Shown here: piece by piece, positions 9,025 through 63,102 of the stretch
Position numbering within the stretch: position 1 is the stretch's first letter
Layout: the number at the start of each line of letters is the position of its first letter
Notes under the pieces: generated by a model
What the model saw: only the letters and a program-made list of their open reading frames with translations
What the model was told of the DNA's origin: nothing
Databases searched by the model: none
IMG/VR virus record: IMGVR_UViG_3300025413_001239
Length of the DNA stretch: 64,000 nt
Source of the DNA: a virus
Taxonomy: Duplodnaviria; Caudoviricetes
Strand: one strand, 5' to 3'
Translations under genes and position numbers: made by a program

Positions 9025-12000
9025 ATGGCTAAACAAAATTTAACAATATTCCAAAAATTGGGTCAAATACTAGGTCCAGAAGGAGTAAAACAAAAACAAC
9101 AATTACCAGCTCAAAATCAACCGCAAAGATACAACATTGGTAAGGATGTCTTATTAAAGACTGATGACAAAAAAGCTTATGAATTAGCTAAACTACAAGC
9201 ACAACAAAATAAGTACTTGGGTCAAGTTTGGAAAAAAGTTGAACACGGACTTTTTCAACAAGCTGTTAACTATGAAACCACACGTATTGGTTCTTATTCT
9301 GATTTTGAATCGATGGAATTTTATCCAGAAATAGCTGCTGCTTTAGACATTATGATGGAAGAATCGACTACACTTAATGGTAATGGTCGTATGGTTAATG
9401 TTTATTCTGATAGTGTTAGGGTTAAGGGTATTATTGAAGACCTTTTATTTAATAGGCTTGATATGCATACATCATTACCAATGTGGACCAGAAATACTCC
9501 AATACGTGAAGATAGTATTATACCATTATTAGATGGTACTGAAATTACTATCAAGGAACTATCTAATAGAGTTAAAAATGGTGAAGAAATATGGTCTTAT
9601 GCAATTCAAGATGTTACCAAGGCAATTGTACCAAGTAAAATAATTTGGTGTGACCTTACTAGAAAGGATAGTGAATTATATCGAGTAACACTTGATGATG
9701 GTTCATATATTGATACAACACCAGACCATGAATATATGCTTAGAGATGGTTCATATAAAAGAGCTGATGAATTAACTGAAGGACAGTCTTTAATGCCTTT
9801 TTATACTAGAAAAAGTGAAAAGAAAAAAGATTGTATTGTAGGTTATGAAAAAATTTATAATCCAAGTACAACTAAATATAAGTTTACTCATTCTTTAGTT
9901 GCACATGAGTTATCAAATTGGAAAAATAGTAAATTTATAGAACAAACCAAAAAAGGTATGACTATAGAAATTACCGATGATTGTTTTGATTATATTTCAA
10001 CTATAATAAAAAATAATGAAAATTATGTTGGTGTAAATAAATTAACTAAATTACTTAGAGCTGATTCTAATTTTATTACGTTGTTTAAAGAAAATTATTC
10101 TTTAAAAAAAGATATTATTAAATCTATTAACCCAACAACATTAACTAAAGTATTATTTAGAAAAACAAATCAGAATTATTTTGATTTTGTTTTATCAATA
10201 AAACCAAGTTTAGTATTAGATAAATCATATATCAAAGCTAAAGCAATTTATTTAGGTAAAACTAAATCAAACGTATTATTAAATCATAAAGTTGTTTCAA
10301 TTATTAAACTTTCAGAGACTTCTGATGTATATTGTTTAGAAGCGGTTGGACCTAATGGCGAACATGATAGACATAATTTTCCAGTGTTAGGTAAAGATGT
10401 AAATGGTTCAGTATCAAGAAGTTCTGGTGTATTTTTAGCCAACTGTAAATACGGTGATAATTTCGTTTATTTAAATATTTCAGATACTAATGGTGTTATA
10501 GGTGCAAAGCAAATGCCTAACTATGAAATGGAACGTAGAGATGGTGGTCTTTTTGATATGATTTCACAAAGAACTGATGAAGATTATAAAACAGATAAAA
10601 CTAAGTATTATTGGAGAGGTCGTGATGTTGAATTTAACTCATGGCAAATAGCACACTTTAGACTTCTTGGTGATGATAGAAGATTACCTTACGGTACATC
10701 GGTGCTAGAAAAAGCTAGAAGAATTTGGAAACAATTATTATTATCTGAAGATGCTATGCTTGTTTATCGTGTTACACGTGCACCTGAGCGTAGAATATAT
10801 AAAATATATGTTGGTAATATTGATGATAAGGACGTTGAAGCATACGTAAATGAAATTGCTAACAGGTTTAAAAGAACCCCAATGGTTGACCCACAAACTG
10901 GGCAAGTTGATTTAAGATATAATCAACTTTCAAATGACCAAGATTACTTTATTCCAGTTAGAAGTGAAGATGCTCCAAGTCCTATCGATACATTACCTGG
11001 TGCTTGTTTATCTTTGGATACGAGGATTCCACTATTAGATGGTAGAATACTTGAACTACAAGAAATTATTTCTGAATGGGATAATGGTAATAAGGACATG
11101 TGGGTTTATTCTGTTGACCCTCAAACTGGTGCATCAACAGTTGGTCCAATCACTTGGGCTGGAGTTACACGTAAAAATACTCAAGTTTTGAAGATAACCC
11201 TTGATAACGGTAAATCAATAACTACAACACCAGACCATAAGTTTGTACATAGAACCAATGGGTTTGTGGAGGCACAAAATCTTGTTATTGGTGATAGTCT
11301 GATGCCGTTTTATACTGATATCGCTAAAATAAAATCAAATTCTAATAATGGTTATCAGAGAATTTGGGATACGGCTACTCAAAAATGGGTTTTTACACAT
11401 AGATTAGTCAAAGAAATTTTATCCAATACTGGGTTAATAAAAGATTTTGAATTTGATACAAAATATATTGGTACTGATAAAAAAATAATACATCATAAGG
11501 ACCATAATAGATTTAATAACGCACCAAACAATTTGGTAATGATGAATGTTGGTGACCATATGAAATATCATCAATCAGTTATTAAAGAAACTATTTGGGC
11601 TAACCCAGAACTTAATAAGGCTAAAATTACACTTGGCGTTAATAAATTCATTTCAAATTTGACTGATGAGGAAAGAGCAATAAGGGCTAAAAAATCAAGA
11701 AATAATTCCGTTACCACAAGAGATAAGGCTAATAAAACGTTTAATGGCAATATTAATAAAGTAGAAATTATTTCAAAAAGAGGTAAGGCTATTGCTGAAG
11801 CAAAGTCAATCCCAGAGTTTAAAGAAAAATTATCTAAGATAGCAGCTAATAATTGGCTAGTTGATGGTTATAAAGAAAGAGTATTCTCAAAAAAACAAAC
11901 ACTTACTTTTTCCGAAAATCTTTATATGATGTTTTTTGAGATGTTTAAACAGCATGGTAAAGCTGATGCTACACTTGCTGAATTAAATCAATCGATTGAG

Positions 12001-13362
12001 TTCATGAACGAATTCACTTCTAGTAATCGAGACATTAGAAGTTCAATTACTAATTTTAATGAATTTACACATAATCATCTTGAAAAGATGTTAAAGAGGA
12101 GAGGATTTAAAAATTATCGTGATTGGTGCAAGGTAACCGCTAAACAACTGGGATACAAGAATGTTAGAGCTTGGAGGTACAGTATAGAAAAAGGCTCTAA
12201 AGTACTTCTATATAATCATAAGATTGTATCAATTGAATGGTTAACTGATTTACAAGATACAGGAACAATCACTGTTGATGGTGAGGAAAAATATCAATCA
12301 ACTCACACATTTGCTTGTGAATCAGGCATTTATGTAAAAAATTCTAATCTAGACCAAATTGCTGATATTGAATACTTACAAAAGAAATTATTTACAGCCT
12401 TAAGGGTACCGAAACCATTCTTAGGTTTTGAAGAAACAACTGGTGATGGTAAGAATTTAGCGTTACAGGATATTCGTTTTTCTAGAACAATCAATAGGAT
12501 TCAACAGGCCATGCTTCAAGAGCTTAATAAGATTGTTATTATACACTTATATTTACTAGGATTTGAAGATGATTTAGATAACTTTACTTTAACACTTAAT
12601 AATCCATCTACACAAGCTGAAATGCTTAAGGTTGAGCATTTACAATTGAAGATGACATTGTTCAAGGATGCTGTATCTGACGCTGGTAATGGCTTTGCTC
12701 CAATGTCAATGACTAGAGCTAAACGAGAAATTCTTGGTTGGGCCGATAATGATATTAAACAAGACCTTCTTGAACAACGTATGGAAAAAGCTGCCGCAGC
12801 TGAATTGGCTAACTCAGCAAATGTTATTAAGCATACTGGTATGTTTGACGTTGTTGATAGACTTTATGGTGATATGAAATTAGCACTTAAGGGTGGTGGA
12901 ACTCCACCAGAAGGTGCTGAAGGTGGTGCTGCTGGTGGTGCTGCTGGTGGTGCCGCTGGCGGTGGAGCTGGTGGCGGCGGTGGATTCGGTGGTGGTGGAA
13001 TTAGCCCAGAAGACTTAGATTTTGGAGCTGAAGGTGGTGAAACGCCAGAAGCTGGTGAGGCTGCTGGTGGTGAGGCTGCTGGTGGTGAAACACCAGCAGC
13101 TGGTGGTGAGGTCGCACCAGAAACGACTGCTGAAGCAATTATTAAAATTGAAAATTTATTAACTGAAAGTAAATCAAAAATTACTAAAAAGTTAAATGAT
13201 AGAACTGAAAAGTATAAAAATAGATTTTTTAATAATTTAATTGATATGGTTGACCATGAGCAAAAACCATTAGATAATGTGAAAATAATTGATAAAAACG
13301 TAAAAATTAATGAAACTGTTAATTCTATGATTAAAGACATTGATGATATGTTAAAAGATTAG
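9025..13362 (+). CDS. Portal protein (T4 gp20-like) containing two inteins; about 684 aa after splicing
   Basis: Portal motifs PYGTSVLEKARRIWKQL, EDAMLVYRVTRAPERRIYKIYVGN, DIEYLQKKLFTALRVPK; position between terL and the protease. Confidence 0.92.
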   Translation: MAKQNLTIFQKLGQILGPEGVKQKQQLPAQNQPQRYNIGKDVLLKTDDKKAYELAKLQAQQNKYLGQVWKKVEHGLFQQAVNYETTRIGSYSDFESMEFYPEIAAALDIMMEESTTLNGNGRMVNVYSDSVRVKGIIEDLLFNRLDMHTSLPMWTRNTPIREDSIIPLLDGTEITIKELSNRVKNGEEIWSYAIQDVTKAIVPSKIIWCDLTRKDSELYRVTLDDGSYIDTTPDHEYMLRDGSYKRADELTEGQSLMPFYTRKSEKKKDCIVGYEKIYNPSTTKYKFTHSLVAHELSNWKNSKFIEQTKKGMTIEITDDCFDYISTIIKNNENYVGVNKLTKLLRADSNFITLFKENYSLKKDIIKSINPTTLTKVLFRKTNQNYFDFVLSIKPSLVLDKSYIKAKAIYLGKTKSNVLLNHKVVSIIKLSETSDVYCLEAVGPNGEHDRHNFPVLGKDVNGSVSRSSGVFLANCKYGDNFVYLNISDTNGVIGAKQMPNYEMERRDGGLFDMISQRTDEDYKTDKTKYYWRGRDVEFNSWQIAHFRLLGDDRRLPYGTSVLEKARRIWKQLLLSEDAMLVYRVTRAPERRIYKIYVGNIDDKDVEAYVNEIANRFKRTPMVDPQTGQVDLRYNQLSNDQDYFIPVRSEDAPSPIDTLPGACLSLDTRIPLLDGRILELQEIISEWDNGNKDMWVYSVDPQTGASTVGPITWAGVTRKNTQVLKITLDNGKSITTTPDHKFVHRTNGFVEAQNLVIGDSLMPFYTDIAKIKSNSNNGYQRIWDTATQKWVFTHRLVKEILSNTGLIKDFEFDTKYIGTDKKIIHHKDHNRFNNAPNNLVMMNVGDHMKYHQSVIKETIWANPELNKAKITLGVNKFISNLTDEERAIRAKKSRNNSVTTRDKANKTFNGNINKVEIISKRGKAIAEAKSIPEFKEKLSKIAANNWLVDGYKERVFSKKQTLTFSENLYMMFFEMFKQHGKADATLAELNQSIEFMNEFTSSNRDIRSSITNFNEFTHNHLEKMLKRRGFKNYRDWCKVTAKQLGYKNVRAWRYSIEKGSKVLLYNHKIVSIEWLTDLQDTGTITVDGEEKYQSTHTFACESGIYVKNSNLDQIADIEYLQKKLFTALRVPKPFLGFEETTGDGKNLALQDIRFSRTINRIQQAMLQELNKIVIIHLYLLGFEDDLDNFTLTLNNPSTQAEMLKVEHLQLKMTLFKDAVSDAGNGFAPMSMTRAKREILGWADNDIKQDLLEQRMEKAAAAELANSANVIKHTGMFDVVDRLYGDMKLALKGGGTPPEGAEGGAAGGAAGGAAGGGAGGGGGFGGGGISPEDLDFGAEGGETPEAGEAAGGEAAGGETPAAGGEVAPETTAEAIIKIENLLTESKSKITKKLNDRTEKYKNRFFNNLIDMVDHEQKPLDNVKIIDKNVKINETVNSMIKDIDDMLKD
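9499..10443 (+). mobile_element. Intein 1 in portal (315 aa): Pro at position 1, class-3-like, endonuclease core missing
   Basis: Block A PIREDSIIPLLDG, block B TTPDH, block F VYCLE...HNF, C-terminus LAN followed by C. Removal restores WTRNT-CKYGD. Confidence 0.85.
11005..12342 (+). mobile_element. Intein 2 in portal (446 aa) with HNH endonuclease
   Basis: Block A CLSLDTRIPLLDG, block B TTPDH, HNH motif IHHKDHNRFNNAPNNL...H, C-terminus VKN followed by S. Removal restores TLPGA-SNLDQI. Confidence 0.92.
12892..13110 (+). repeat. Gly/Ala/Glu low-complexity coding repeat in the portal C-terminal tail
   Basis: Tandem GGTGGTGCTGCT and GCTGCTGGTGGTGAG units encoding GGAA and GGE(A/T)A repeats. Confidence 0.8.
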
Positions 13363-57075: not shown

Positions 57076-58187
57076 TTAATTATTATACCAACTCCATTCA
57101 TACCCACCAGCAGATTTTCTTTCTTTATTGCATACTTTTGTTATATTTCCAATTTGAATTCCTAAATGTTTATAAATATAGTTATTGAATTCCACGTATT
57201 GATAATAATACCGTTTTTAGATTGAATAACTTTTTTACCTTTACTAGCTTTATATGTGGTATCTATTAGATTTTTTTTATTTTCAGTTGTTAATTTAACC
57301 TTTAAATTATATTTATCAAGTAATATATTCAATAATTTTTCATCATAATTTTCAAGATAAAACCAAAATTTATTAAGACAAACACTATTTTTAATTATTG
57401 ATTGACTTATAGCGGAAGTTGAAACACCATAAAATTTATTAGCCTCTGACAATGAGTGCCACTCTTTAGTAGTTTTTTTATTTATATCATATTCAATAAT
57501 TTTTTTATTATTTGTTTTACCATTTATGCTACGAATATTATAAGTTCTTTCATGATATTTAGAAATAAAATCTTGAAGATTGGATATGTTTTCAATATCA
57601 TCCGAGTATCGCCAAATAAAATTATTTAAAGAAAATCTTTTTAATCTACAAACATCAGTTATTGAACCATAACCGAATTCTTTTTTCACCAAATCAATAG
57701 ATTCCCATTCTTTAATAAACTCACCATTTAGTGAAAATTGTTTAACCTTTACTTTTTTAGTATCTAAAAAATCATCACTAAATTTATACCCAGATATACC
57801 ATCACCACCATTTGTTAAATTAGTTAAAGGACCTAAACCTAAATCATTTCTACCAATTAATCTAATTAATTCAACCTCTAAATTAAACGCATCATTTTCG
57901 AGCAAGTTTTTTTTAACTCTAATAATGATAGGTGATAAATTTTCAGATAGAATTTTTTTAATTTTATTGTTTTTATAACTAGATATAAAATTTAAATTAT
58001 ATTCGTTTAAATGACATTTATCTCTAAATCCAGAACCTTTACCAACATAAAAAGGTTCAAAATCAAATTCAAATTCACCATATTTATAATTTGATTTTTT
58101 TCTAGGGTCTAAGTAAACGTAAACATAAAATTTATTTTTCTTTTTGTTGTATTTCTTAGAATATTCAACTTGTTTTTTATTACTCAT
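57076..58187 (-). CDS. GIY-YIG-like homing endonuclease with NUMOD1 repeats; frameshift in the last repeat
   Basis: FYVYVY...FYVGKGSG.R, NLTNGGDG. ORF stops at 57162, but KHLGIQIGNITKVCNKERKSAGGYEW continues in another frame to 57076. Confidence 0.8.
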
Positions 58188-59087: not shown

Positions 59088-59739
59088 TTTTCATTCTACC
59101 AAAAAAACTTTCATGTGTTTCATTTTTATCAACCTTAATCATAACTTCTTTTGCTTTTTCTAATTTAGGTTTTAACCTATTAACATCAAGTGTTGATGGT
59201 TTTTTTATTTGTAAAGCATCTAATTTAACTTTTTGTCTTTTTAATGAATTATAAGCAAAATCGTTCTCTTGTTTTATTAAAATATTTAATTCTGGACCTT
59301 TAATATCCTCTAACGATTCATTATGAATATCAACAATTTCTGGCACATAAAATATTGGTGAAGAGTTACCGTCATAACCATGTAATGTTGCTTCAACGTG
59401 TGGTTTGCGCAACTCATCCATGTAGTTAAGTATTTCCTTAACCCTTTCAGTTTTTATATTCCATTCATTTTTTAATATTAATTCATCTGTATTGGGCTTA
59501 AAAATTTTTACTTGTTCAAAATAAGATGGTAAAGGCTTATTAATCATAACCTTTTTTATAGAATACTGTAAATTCGACTTACGAATTCTTGTAAGTCTTT
59601 CATATTCTTTCATAGTACCTCTTTTACTCTTGATACTAAGATAAACTATCAAGACTTTTAATTTTAAATCTTGAATAAATTCGTTAAATTGTCTTTTAAT
59701 TTTTTGAAATTTCTTTTTCATTTTATTTCTTTTTTTCAT
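59044..59739 (-). CDS. Hypothetical protein
   Basis: 231-aa ORF. Confidence 0.6.
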   Translation of the reverse strand: MKKRNKMKKKFQKIKRQFNEFIQDLKLKVLIVYLSIKSKRGTMKEYERLTRIRKSNLQYSIKKVMINKPLPSYFEQVKIFKPNTDELILKNEWNIKTERVKEILNYMDELRKPHVEATLHGYDGNSSPIFYVPEIVDIHNESLEDIKGPELNILIKQENDFAYNSLKRQKVKLDALQIKKPSTLDVNRLKPKLEKAKEVMIKVDKNETHESFFGRMKSEEERINSIDDNHG

Positions 59740-62133
59740 TTACCAGTTTAAGGTATAGGTTTTTTCTATCTTCAGTTACCTTATCCATAGAATACGTATC
59801 CTTAACTGTGTTATATAAGTTTTCACTAAGTTGTGTTACTAATTCTGGTTGTTGAATTAATTTCTTAATTGCTTTAACCCAATCTTTGGTTTGATGTTTA
59901 CTTGGTTTAATCAAAATACCATTCGCATTAGTATCCCAATTACCACCAAATTGTATAGCGTTAGTCACATCAATTTGATATGGACCAAAATCCTGAGCTA
60001 TAATAGCCTTTTTATGGAATCCAGCTTCGATGACTTTTAATTGACTCTTAACCTCATTAAAAATATTATCTTCAATTGGTGCCAATGATACATCAAATAA
60101 ATTATAATTTGATGCGTATGTACTAATTGGCTTAGTCCAAACTCTTCTATAAGGTTCGTTAGCTACATTAGGATATTCTTCGTTCTTAAACTTCAATAAG
60201 AAATCCTTATACTCTGGACTTACAGTTGAATAGTTATCGGTAAATATTTTTTCATACTGATACCAAACGCTTTCAGTTGGCTTGATGGGTCTTTGAGTTT
60301 GTTGTTTAGTTTGCTCATCAATAATTGTCATAGTACCTCTAAGGTCATATCCACATAGTACAAATTGTACTTTATCTATAAGACCTTCACGATTAATGGT
60401 TCCAACCACATCGTTAATAAGTTCTAAGTCTTTAAGGTGACTATTGCCAATCCACATTGCTTTGCCGTTTCTTCTGACATAGATAATATGATTTTTAACT
60501 TCAACACAATAAACATTACCTTTATAATATCTATTATATTGATTTTCTGTTTTAATTAGAGGGGTATTTTTATTATGCTTACTAGTACTATGATGTTTGG
60601 TAAAATTAACCACCAATGAATCATATTGTGACTTTATTCCTCTTCCTTTAATTTCACTAGTTCGTTTACCTCGATTTGTTATTGTCGCTGAAATACCTAT
60701 TTTTAAAGCAATTTCTTGTAAATTATTTGCTAACGAAGGTGAGCAAGTAAATGCTCTGGTTCTTGTATATTTATTATTTTCAATATGGCCGTCACCTTTA
60801 ATAAACCAATCTAAAAATATTGTTAATTGTCTTGGTGATAAATTTAATATTTCTTCAGGTACAAATTTATCATATGCATTACCAAAATTTGATAAGTATT
60901 CCCATAACATTTTATCAAAAACCCTAACTTGTTTTTTGTCTTTAGTATACGTTGGTTTGAAACCCATTTTAATTAATAATTCATACATATATGATAAATA
61001 CCCATTATCTTTTGTTTGTGCTATACCTACTTGATGTAACCCATTTGTTTTAGTAGTCCACCCTTCAGCCATCCAAAAACCAAAAAATTGTAACCAATTA
61101 TCCATATCGATATTTTTATCATAACCATATTTTTCGGATAATCCATTATAACGTTTTTTTGATATTAATTTATCAATATAGTTTTCGTTTTCTTCAAATT
61201 CAGCGTATTCATTTAGCATTGGTAAAACAAAATATTTTTCTTTTTTACCAACCCATACTGCATCTTTTTTAACATGGAAATTTTTACCATGTATTTTTTC
61301 AGATTGGATTAATTCTAAATCAAGTTTTTTATGTGTTAATGATTTGGCCACAGAGGCATACATATTGTGGTTTGGTGTAACTTCGTATTCAACTAAACCA
61401 TTTTTACAACAATTTAATTCACCTTCAAATGGTTCACATATGTAACCTGTTGGTTTGTGGTACTCTAATTCATTTGTATTTGGATTTAATGTTGCAACCA
61501 TTTCGGTTTGATTTAAAGCGTCAAATCTTTTCCAACCTTCATCAGTCAGAATTTCGGTATCTGGTGTCATACAACTACCACCTAACCAACCAATTCTAAG
61601 TCTCTCAGATGGTTCTACATTTGGTGTAAATTGTTTTTCGGTTGGGTCTACAGCATTTGGAAGTACGAATACGTTTTTATTAAATTTTTTAATTTCATCA
61701 GCAAATATGGGTGTTGTTGTTGTAACATTTCTTGAAATCTTAATGTTATTAAGAATTAACTTATCAAGACCATGATTTTTTATAAGTAAAAAAGCTGGGT
61801 GATGTGGTCCTGGGGACCAATAGTCATCTAAGTCCATTATTGTAACAATACCTAAATTGTCAAGTCTTTCAAGGAGTGCTGGTAATGCGCTATATTCACC
61901 AAGGGTTCTATGATAATGTATAATATCATATTGTTTAAGCCATTCATCATTATCTAATTGTGGTTCATAATCAATATCAATTGAGAACTCATCTGGGTAA
62001 TTTTGTTCTAGGGCAATATGTGGCTTAGAACTTCTAAAGTAGCTTGTCAGCTGACCCCAGTTCTGTCACTAGGTACTACTAATACCTTTACTTTGCGACT
62101 AACTGGGGTCAGATTAATAATGTTTGTTGTCAT
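59723..62133 (-). CDS. GT-B glycosyltransferase with an intein; needs recoding at 62042-62052 to join its N-terminus
   Basis: Main frame is open 62065 to 59723 (SYFRSSKPH...MDLDDYW...IGWLGG...KSQLKVIEAG), with no ATG, GTG or TTG before 61837. The N-terminal 28 codons (62133-62050) lie in another frame. Confidence 0.8.
60443..61573 (-). mobile_element. LAGLIDADG intein (377 aa) in the glycosyltransferase
   Basis: WLGGS then CMTPDTEILT; VTPNH; FFGFWMAEG; WFIKGDG; VYCVEV..H; IGN followed by SHLKD. Confidence 0.92.
62041..62112 (-). other. Candidate ribosomal bypass or frameshift element: 62-nt hairpin plus AGC-UGA-CA-AGC
   Basis: 12-bp perfect inverted repeat (62051-62062 / 62101-62112) with inner stems; matched Ser codons at 62052-50 and 62044-42 flank a stop. 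Confidence 0.55.
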
Positions 62134-63003
62134 TTTGTGAAATTAATTCTCTTATTATATTTTTATTTTTTTTGTAATCCGATTCCCAGATTACAATACA
62201 ATTATAATTATATTTTTTAGCTAAGTCAAGCTTATTCTTATCATATTCCCATATTTCTTTAGCTGTTTTACTCTTTTTTTTATTATAATACATTGAATCA
62301 TATTTTTTAGGGTTACAATGCCAGTAATCACCATTATACTCAATAAGTAAATTTAGCTCAGGAATATAAATATCAAAAATTTTTGATTCAATAATAAAAT
62401 TAGGTTCGACTTTTAAATTTATGCTCTCAAGATATTTAATAATTTCAAACTCTGGTTTTGAGCGATTAAAAGATTTTAACTCTCCGTTAGCAATTCTATT
62501 TTTCATAAGAATACTTAACTTGGTTCTAGTCTCTTCCATTTTACCACTTTTCCAACGTTCTTTAGCCATAATACTAAACATGTCTTTGTATTCTTGTTTA
62601 GACATATGGTCACTAGTTTTAACACCAATTTTTTTATCTGAAATTGTTTTTTTTGTAGTATTTGAATGAGTTTTTTTAAAAAACGGATTCCCCCCCCAAC
62701 TTGTTTTTTTAAAGAACATTTTTTACATTCATGTTTATTTTTTAAATTTCTATTTAGTAAAGATTTATTGTTTACTGAAAATTTTATTTTTTTATTACAT
62801 GTAATACAAGTATAATGCCCACACCACATATTACCCTCTTGCCAAAAATTTTTATAGAAAGACTCGCCAAGCAATCTATTTCTAGTTAAATTTTTGTCTT
62901 TTAATATTTTTAAAACTTGATTTTTTGTAATGTTAGGTATTAATTTACATATTTTAGTTGACCCAATACCGCTTAAATATAATTCAATTATTTTTTCTTC
63001 CAT
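62114..63003 (-). CDS. Homing endonuclease (NUMOD3 plus Vsr/PD-(D/E)XK domain) split by a G8 tract
   Basis: ORFs 62515..63003 and 62114..62719 join at C8 (62690-62697); FDIYIPELNLLIEYNGDYWHC. Confidence 0.75.
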
Positions 63004-63006
63004 ATA

Positions 63007-63102
63007 TTATAAATATACAGAAAATAAAAATAAGTCTAAAAAGCTAACCCCAGTTCTGTCTGATGCTACTACTAAAACTTTAATTTTTTTGTTTTTTGTC
63101 AT
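63007..63102 (-). pseudogene. Orphaned original 5' end of the glycosyltransferase (31 aa)
   Basis: MTKNKKIKVLVVASDRTGVS-FLDLF...; homology ends exactly at the Ser AGC codon (63045-63043). Confidence 0.75.

Follow-up and report, generated by a model that had tools for sequence, protein, structure and literature searches.

How can a full-length enzyme be made from a gene whose reading frame is interrupted, after only 28 codons, by a stop codon and a gap of a few nucleotides (nt)? The question is raised by a GT4 glycosyltransferase gene in the IMG/VR virus record IMGVR_UViG_3300025413_001239, a 64,000 nt stretch of DNA that is referred to, at its full length, as the window. Comparison of this gene with its relatives leads us to favor, with a probability of about 0.7, a reading in which translation of the glycosyltransferase depends on a programmed short hop of the ribosome (bypass) that is carried by a homing-endonuclease cassette.

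All window coordinates of the locus refer to the minus strand. The first open reading frame (ORF1, 62047-62133) begins with the ATG at 62133-62131 and has 28 codons, made up of a cassette-encoded N-terminal extension (MTTNIINLTPVSR) and a replacement copy of the conserved sequence KVKVLVVPSDRTGVS, after which it ends at TGA. Its last sense codon, the proposed take-off codon, is AGC (Ser, 62050-62052), and this is followed by a 5 nt gap, TGACA (62045-62049), that opens with the stop codon (62049-62047) and is proposed to be left untranslated. A second AGC (62042-62044), also part of the cassette, is the proposed landing codon, with decoding restarting at TAC (62041-62039). It opens ORF2 (59723-62044), which encodes the rest of the GT-B fold glycosyltransferase in 773 codons plus a stop, and has no start codon near its 5' end. 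The first in-frame Met lies 69 codons past the landing codon, and the public gene call for this protein accordingly begins 69 codons too late. A GGGG run is found 2 nt upstream of the take-off codon, and an RNA hairpin (62051-62112) has a 3' arm that ends inside it. The original prediction, made from the letters of the window, had described this arrangement of start, stop, gap, second AGC and a downstream frame of more than 770 codons, and it was found to be correct; the palindrome reported at the take-off site, GTCAGCTGAC, and the orphan copy of the N-terminus at 63102-63007 are likewise both present. Identity across independent assemblies was used as a proxy for a read-level check of the junction: a Joint Genome Institute (JGI) metagenome contig and a Logan assembly of another run are 100% identical over 5115 nt that include it, and the window's glycosyltransferase protein is carried by 16 contigs, with sizes of up to 343 kb among the contigs on which it is present.

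In the proposed mechanism, the ribosome would read the 28 codons of ORF1 and stall, its P site holding peptidyl-tRNA-Ser paired to AGC and its A site facing UGA. The peptidyl-tRNA would then release the take-off codon, the mRNA would slide by 8 nt, and the tRNA would re-pair with the next AGC, after which decoding would restart at UAC and give an enzyme of normal length (...DRTGVS-YFRS...). Forward motion would probably be driven by refolding of the 5' hairpin, the 3' arm of which would be inside the ribosome at take-off and would zip up on leaving the exit channel, a proposal that fits the idea that pairing within the exiting mRNA supplies the force for forward bypassing (bioRxiv 10.1101/2024.12.09.627546). 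Purely as an illustration, and assuming that 12 nt are held in the ribosome, the energy of hairpin zipping averages -7.4 kcal/mol across alleles and is -7.6 kcal/mol in the window. The GGGG run may assist as a Shine-Dalgarno-like element in the style of prfB, and the gap would spoil the target site of the endonuclease while the protein remained unchanged.

Many relatives are broken in the same way. Scanning viral contigs at the protein level yielded 80 loci, most of them intact and reading M-x-K-I-K-V-L-V-V-P-S-D-R-T-G-V-[S/G]-[Y/F]-[Y/F]-R-S; 12 of these loci were broken exactly at the S/G codon (8 distinct sequences, or 9 counting the window). A DNA pattern built from the broken loci had 20 viral and 60 metagenome matches and yielded 54 distinct broken alleles of this gene, along with four chance matches elsewhere. 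Two alleles missed by the pattern, L167 (AGT/TA/AGT) and L184 (GGT/TAACTAAA/GGT), were added by a second protein scan of a divergent clade, giving a total of 56 distinct GT4 glycosyltransferase alleles broken at one and the same codon. Their first ORF has 26-30 codons and an N-terminus that is longer than in intact alleles, and the take-off codon is always AGC, AGT, GGT or GGC, with a stop directly after it (TGA in 36 of the 54, TAA in the remaining 18 and in the two additional alleles). TAG is never found after the take-off codon in any broken allele. The alleles recovered by protein scan, 12 of which are distinct and broken, serve as an unbiased sample, and in all 12 the Gly codon is GGG, the take-off codon fits RGY, and TGA or TAA comes directly after it; among 51 intact alleles, GGG is found in seven and RGY in 21.

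What varies is the length of the gap and, with it, the reading frame. Counted from the stop, gaps of 2, 3, 4, 5, 6, 7 and 8 nt occur across the 56 alleles, and among the 54 the most common are 5 nt (19 alleles), 4 nt (16) and 3 nt (13), followed by 6 nt (three), 2 nt (two) and 7 nt (one). Depending on the allele, ORF2 lies in the -1, +1 or 0 frame relative to ORF1 (-1/+2 in the window), and in only 16 of 54 alleles, the window with its 5 nt gap not being among them, is it in the same frame as the stop. Even close relatives within one clade differ, as in L134 (TGACG) and L107 (TGAC), where the gaps differ by 1 nt and yet each allele has a 402-codon ORF. Since all three frame relations occur, one single frameshift or readthrough event cannot suit every allele, whereas a hop to the next matching codon can. 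A -1 slip on the GGGG run, which the original prediction had offered as an alternative, cannot be general for the same reason, as the gaps of relatives place ORF2 in the 0 or +1 frame.

The two codons flanking the gap are related to each other. In 37 of the 56 alleles the landing codon is cognate to the take-off tRNA, and in the rest it matches at two of three bases; the first cognate triplet in any frame is also the frame-restoring codon in 35 of 54 alleles, with L167 and L184 matched as well. The landing codon of broken alleles is always RGN. When it specifies Ser it is AGY in 14 cases and TCN in none, while at the corresponding position of intact genes there are 10 AGY and 18 TCN codons (p = 4e-5, uncorrected for kinship). 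In one clade AGC, AGA and GGC all occur as the landing triplet, which would be read as Ser, Arg and Gly, and the residue at this position in intact alleles is S or G in 50 of 51 (Phe in the other). This spread is easier to understand if the triplet serves for pairing and is not itself decoded, as the hop would have it. The wobble base often differs between take-off and landing codons, for example GGT/GGC in nine alleles and GGC/GGT in eight.

The original prediction had also noted a long hairpin with 12 perfect base pairs (bp) in the 62 nt before the stop; in homologous broken alleles the hairpin covaries and the codons are matched or near-matched. In the window it consists of a 12-bp outer helix (62112-62101 paired with 62062-62051), a 5-bp middle helix and a 7-bp apical stem, with a fold energy of -34.5 kcal/mol against -20.7 ± 2.95 kcal/mol for shuffled sequences (z = -4.7; equaled by none of 200 shuffles). 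In all broken alleles the 73 nt ending at the take-off codon form one shared three-helix hairpin, with a mean energy of -31.4 ± 3.0 kcal/mol compared with -7.4 ± 2.6 kcal/mol for the same stretch of the 51 intact alleles, which lack the hairpin. In an alignment of 39 sequences, 84.9% of cells are paired, and shifting the partners by 1-3 columns lowers this to 33-47%; compensatory double changes are found at 10 pairs (71 cells), and the alignment scores 0.25 for covariation where shuffles score 0.14, none of 500 reaching the observed value. The pairing test used a hand-written structure taken from the window fold, and kept the rows L100, L105 and L117, scoring them as broken pairs; these three rows have a shifted 5' arm and are misaligned in the MAFFT alignment, on which RNAalifold returned almost no structure. 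Where codon choice in the 3' arm varies synonymously (Arg AGA/AGG/CGT, Thr ACT/ACA/TCT, Val GTN), the 5' arm varies to match; this 5' arm sits in the N-terminal extension found in broken alleles only. The peptide encoded by ORF1 is conserved, and its sequence is constrained both by enzyme function and by hairpin pairing. As the hairpin is retained in alleles without the endonuclease, it is not a signal for expression of the endonuclease. A search of Rfam found no family that matches the hairpin, and gave only sub-threshold matches to an upstream terminator. A downstream stem-loop seen in the window fold (about 62040-62025) was rejected as a conserved element because it is not retained in relatives.

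Both parts of the gene appear to be maintained. ORF2 is full length and ends at a stop in 39 of 41 judgeable alleles. Over the 50 codons past the landing site, which in most alleles precede any Met, the median dN/dS is 0.18 with synonymous sites near saturation (pS 0.67), and for the conserved part of ORF1 the pN/pS across alleles is 0.34. By these measures ORF1 and ORF2 are both under purifying selection and the gene is alive, and the relaxed selection that would have pointed to a recent pseudogene was not seen. For the intact relative L016, AlphaFold predicts a GT-B/GT4 fold (pLDDT 89, pTM 0.88) closest to GlgM, MshA and BshA. Mapped onto this model, ORF1 covers strand beta1 (residues 4-9) of the N-terminal Rossmann domain together with the loop after it, and residues 17 and 18, where helix alpha1 begins, flank the break. 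The loop before this helix has a constant length in 51 intact alleles, and the hop is predicted to give a product of exactly wild-type length from every allele, irrespective of gap length.

These observations bear on the alternative that fares best, though we judge it improbable, namely that each allele uses a separate conventional event: a -1 frameshift for gaps of 5 and 2 nt, a prfB-like +1 shift at RGY-UGA-N with GGGG as stimulator for gaps of 4 and 7 nt, and stop codon readthrough for gaps of 3 and 6 nt, with products that carry 1-3 extra residues. The site does resemble that of prfB in its UGA, in the C that often comes next and in a GGGG run located 2 nt ahead of the take-off codon, and there is a clade with AGY-TGAC-GGC that has no cognate landing codon and in which a +1 shift would give S-D-G. 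Against this, three mechanisms would be required for one conserved element whose frame differs between close relatives, and a slippery heptamer for the -1 shift is absent from the window. The added residues would be placed where helix alpha1 begins, directly after the loop of invariant length, and a single clade would have Arg, Ser or Gly at the position of the landing codon. The avoidance of TCN Ser codons at this position would be pointless if the codon were simply decoded.

Slightly less probable again is a split gene, in which the 28 amino acid (aa) peptide and the large fragment are made by termination-reinitiation, and either assemble non-covalently or leave the N-terminal strand dispensable. 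Homing endonucleases do divide phage genes into functional halves, as in T4 gene 39/60 and Aeh1 nrdA (10.1101/2022.08.31.505936), and one of the broken alleles, L121, has an ATG that overlaps the stop. From the opening of the ORF2 frame to 10 codons past the landing codon, however, 46 of 54 alleles have no ATG, GTG or TTG in that frame, and on this ground reinitiation was rejected as a general mechanism. The first Met of ORF2 is 9-83 codons downstream of the landing codon across alleles, and yet the codons in between are under purifying selection. A split gene would also leave the matched codons and the hairpin without a role.

The break belongs to a larger unit that moves between alleles. On the gene tree the broken alleles are scattered, with 23 gains or losses by parsimony, at least 8 of them forced by well-supported branches. 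In the pairs L014 and L016, and L129 and L009, both flanks are about 95-97% identical and enclose a sharply bounded insert, which consists of an optional endonuclease gene, a new start, the N-terminal extension, a replacement copy of KVLVVPSDRTGV, the stop, the gap and the landing codon. The replacement region of L014 is about 70% identical to L016 and ends at the landing codon, which is AGT in L014 (broken) and TCG in L016 (intact), two genes that are otherwise near-identical; the insert therefore supplies the landing codon, and it is one that fits its own take-off codon. Comparison of such aligned alleles shows the whole unit to be a mobile cassette that invades intact alleles at the take-off/landing codon.

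In the window the endonuclease gene (62114-63003) overlaps the N-terminal extension by 20 nt. Across alleles its product has a helix-turn-helix (HTH), a NUMOD3 motif and an invariant IEYNGDYWH nuclease motif at fixed spacing, with a weak match to REase_MTES_1575 and matches to homing endonucleases in PHROG, including a family labeled HNH endonuclease; Pfam found no HNH domain in it. The gene is present in about 28 of 51 judgeable alleles and absent from about 23, and where present it is mostly intact (about 295-311 aa, e.g., L001, L119 and L129), although several alleles, the window among them, have it truncated or frameshifted. In the window a run of eight G (62690-62697), identical in two independent assemblies, divides it between two overlapping frames, while the closest relative, L119, is intact; the split is either that of a decaying gene or a difference in homopolymer length. 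Beyond the endonuclease lies the orphan original 5' end of the glycosyltransferase (63007-63102), which reads M..KIKVLVVASDRTGVS up to the point where cassette sequence takes over. Orphans of this kind break after TGV[S/G](Y) in 10 distinct cassette-bearing alleles, the window included, so that the insertion point is the codon that holds the gap, as the original prediction had stated. We infer that the endonuclease cuts at this codon, in which case the orphan and the gap-bearing copy would both be immune to it. A further suggestion, that the 5' arm pairs with the orphan copy to guide a long-range hop or splice, does not hold generally, as most alleles have no recognizable orphan and those that lack the endonuclease keep the hairpin. 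In L106 the orphan, about 1046 nt upstream of the take-off site, has an N-terminal extension of its own that is like that of an older cassette (MSDIVTNPFGRKLKVLVV...), which suggests that an already invaded allele was invaded again.

With its variable gaps, covarying hairpin, mobility and selection across 56 alleles, the comparison lends support to the idea of an independent endonuclease-plus-recoding cassette with matched codons, a stop after take-off and a hairpin. We think it somewhat less certain than the hop itself, but still probable, that these alleles represent an independently evolved and naturally diversified family of programmed hops of 5-11 nt, in which refolding of the 5' hairpin is the driver, the homing endonuclease spreads the element and the spacer immunizes the target.

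Two further explanations were considered. The gap might be taken out of the RNA by a hairpin-guided cleavage-ligation or editing of unknown type, or be missing from a subpopulation of genomes, with translation being conventional in either case. We consider this very unlikely, even though the hairpin ends exactly at the gap and T4-like phages encode RNA repair enzymes: excision of 2-8 nt is known from no bacterial or phage system, no Rfam family is matched, the gap is found in all independent assemblies, and splicing does not need a matched-codon rule. That the genes are dead, with the gaps being scars of imprecise repair after endonuclease cleavage or errors of assembly, has the least chance of all, since ORF2 is intact and selected despite near-saturated synonymous sites, the element is conserved and covarying, and independent assemblies are identical, which outweighs the frameshift in the window endonuclease and the two truncated ORF2 copies.

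Several observations weigh against a programmed hop, or limit how far the counts can carry it. Most alleles come from a DNA pattern that required GGGG, RGY and TRA, and these features are unbiased in only the 12 alleles mentioned above; the alleles also share ancestry, so the counts are not of independent events. In 19 of 54 alleles the landing codon is near-cognate only, with two of three bases matched and the middle G always among them. The pairs involved are AGY to GGC, where G-U pairing is possible at the first position, AGC to AGA, GGY to GGA and, in one allele, GGC to AGC. The least regular allele, L096:522-595 (= L163), reads AGT-TAA-GGC with an in-frame stop, and one base ahead of its landing codon is an AGG whose fit to the take-off tRNA equals that of the AGA landings in other alleles. 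In L121 (4019-4116; GGC-TGATG-AGC) the ATG that overlaps the stop is in frame with ORF2 (TGATGAGC), and here termination-reinitiation could operate instead of, or besides, a hop. ORF2 is truncated in L103, which contains Ns, and in L145. The hairpin and the GGGG run overlap, and their separate roles cannot be told apart in these data. Lastly, the short unprogrammed hops known from Escherichia coli are inefficient.

The window also encodes a T4-type portal protein with an intein, a gp23 capsid protein and a large terminase, from which its source is identified as a T4-like jumbo phage, translated by bacterial ribosomes. A megablast search against a phage collection gave no match, and tblastn gave only distant matches to glycosyltransferases and inteins. 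No tRNA genes were found in the window, and there is no sign of a suppressor tRNA in it. The glycosyltransferase gene is host to a second selfish element, a LAGLIDADG intein of 377 aa within ORF2 (60443-61573), which runs from Cys1 to Gly-Asn and is followed by Ser; the usual ending is His-Asn. Relatives of the glycosyltransferase that are free of inteins have 392-413 aa. Intein-bearing and intein-free alleles are found among broken and intact genes alike, indicating that the two selfish elements target the gene independently. The portal (gp20) gene (9025-13362, plus strand, 1445 codons) has an intein splicing domain and an HNH-like segment, and a free-standing GIY-YIG endonuclease gene (57162-58187, minus strand) lies about 1.5 kb downstream of the glycosyltransferase gene, past two ORFs. 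The window thus shows a very high load of homing elements, the GIY-YIG gene among them.

Among known recoding systems, the +1 frameshift of prfB (RF2) shares with this site an in-frame UGA in the A site, often with C next, and a G-rich Shine-Dalgarno-like run 2-3 nt before the P-site codon. It differs in that the frame relation of the glycosyltransferase alleles is not fixed at +1, the window being -1/+2 and all three relations occurring across alleles; there is no re-pairing of the CUU-U type, and a matched downstream codon and a 5' hairpin are conserved instead. Nor does stop codon readthrough describe the family, given the 16 of 54 alleles in which ORF2 is in frame with the stop. Related in principle are the E. 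coli cases in which a tRNA hops a short way past a stop or slow codon (Weiss 1987; O'Connor 1989; Kane 1992): a peptidyl-tRNA detaches at a slow A-site codon and re-pairs with a matching codon a few bases on, independently of frame. Those hops are unprogrammed or artificial and low-level, in reporters or overexpressed genes, whereas the site described here is natural, conserved in dozens of phages, required for the product and, on the comparative evidence, provided with a dedicated hairpin.

The mitochondrial byp elements of the yeast Magnusiomyces are reportedly hairpin inserts of 27-55 nt (Lang 2014). They resemble the present family in having many natural gaps, matched flanking codons and a mobile nature, and differ in having no endonuclease cassette and in belonging to a different translation system.

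To our knowledge, there is essentially one case of efficient programmed bypassing in bacteria, that of T4 gene 60 and its homologs, and the 50 nt bypass of gene 60 is carried by the MobA homing-endonuclease element (Huang 1988; Bonocora 2011). Both systems have matched take-off and landing codons with a stop directly after take-off, and in both the bypass travels within a mobile cassette. The endonuclease ORF of this cassette shares sequence, in a different frame, with an N-terminal extension that the cassette encodes, after which comes a diverged copy that replaces target-gene sequence (HomR). In both, the bypass persists where the endonuclease, as is often the case, has decayed or been lost, and insertions are recent and scattered on the tree of the host gene. 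The architecture of the MobA/gene 60 elements, with its overlap of endonuclease ORF and N-terminal extension, homology-replacement region, bypass and frequent loss of the endonuclease, has been described by Manning and Atkins (bioRxiv 10.1101/2022.08.31.505936), who found the elements exclusively in Topo2L, stated that the cassette 'remains unique' and called its function a puzzle.

The differences are just as clear. The target here is a GT4 glycosyltransferase and not a topoisomerase (Topo2L), and the endonuclease has NUMOD3 and an IEYNGDYWH-type motif in place of an HNH domain, which by Pfam is absent. The gap is 2-8 nt and not 20-50 nt, which leaves it without a stem-loop of the kind found in the take-off region of gene 60; the conserved hairpin instead lies 5' of the gap and ends in the take-off codon. 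This 5' hairpin is strongly conserved and covarying, while the 5' stem-loop of gene 60 is not conserved. The codons are AGY or GGY with UGA or UAA, as opposed to GGA with UAG, and the insertion is near the 5' end and leaves a 20-codon orphan, whereas in gene 60 two functional halves result. With its GT4 host gene and lack of a Pfam HNH domain, the element falls outside the homologous MobA/gene 60 family; as far as these sequences tell, it acts like gene 60 without being a member of that family, and there is no sign of relatedness. A full-text literature search found no description of a glycosyltransferase hop family.

Such 'frameshifted' phage genes should not be annotated as pseudogenes. With dozens of natural variants in gap, codon pair, stop and stem, the family offers a ready mutational series on the release of the peptidyl-tRNA, the slide and the landing, and would directly test exiting-mRNA pairing as the driver of forward sliding (bioRxiv 10.1101/2024.12.09.627546). 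If the proposed hop is correct, a selfish endonuclease breaks its own recognition site within a conserved codon and leaves the host protein unharmed. The bypass of gene 60 would then have a second natural counterpart, much shorter and unrelated, and the combination of endonuclease and bypass would be a general evolutionary strategy of phages and not a one-off.

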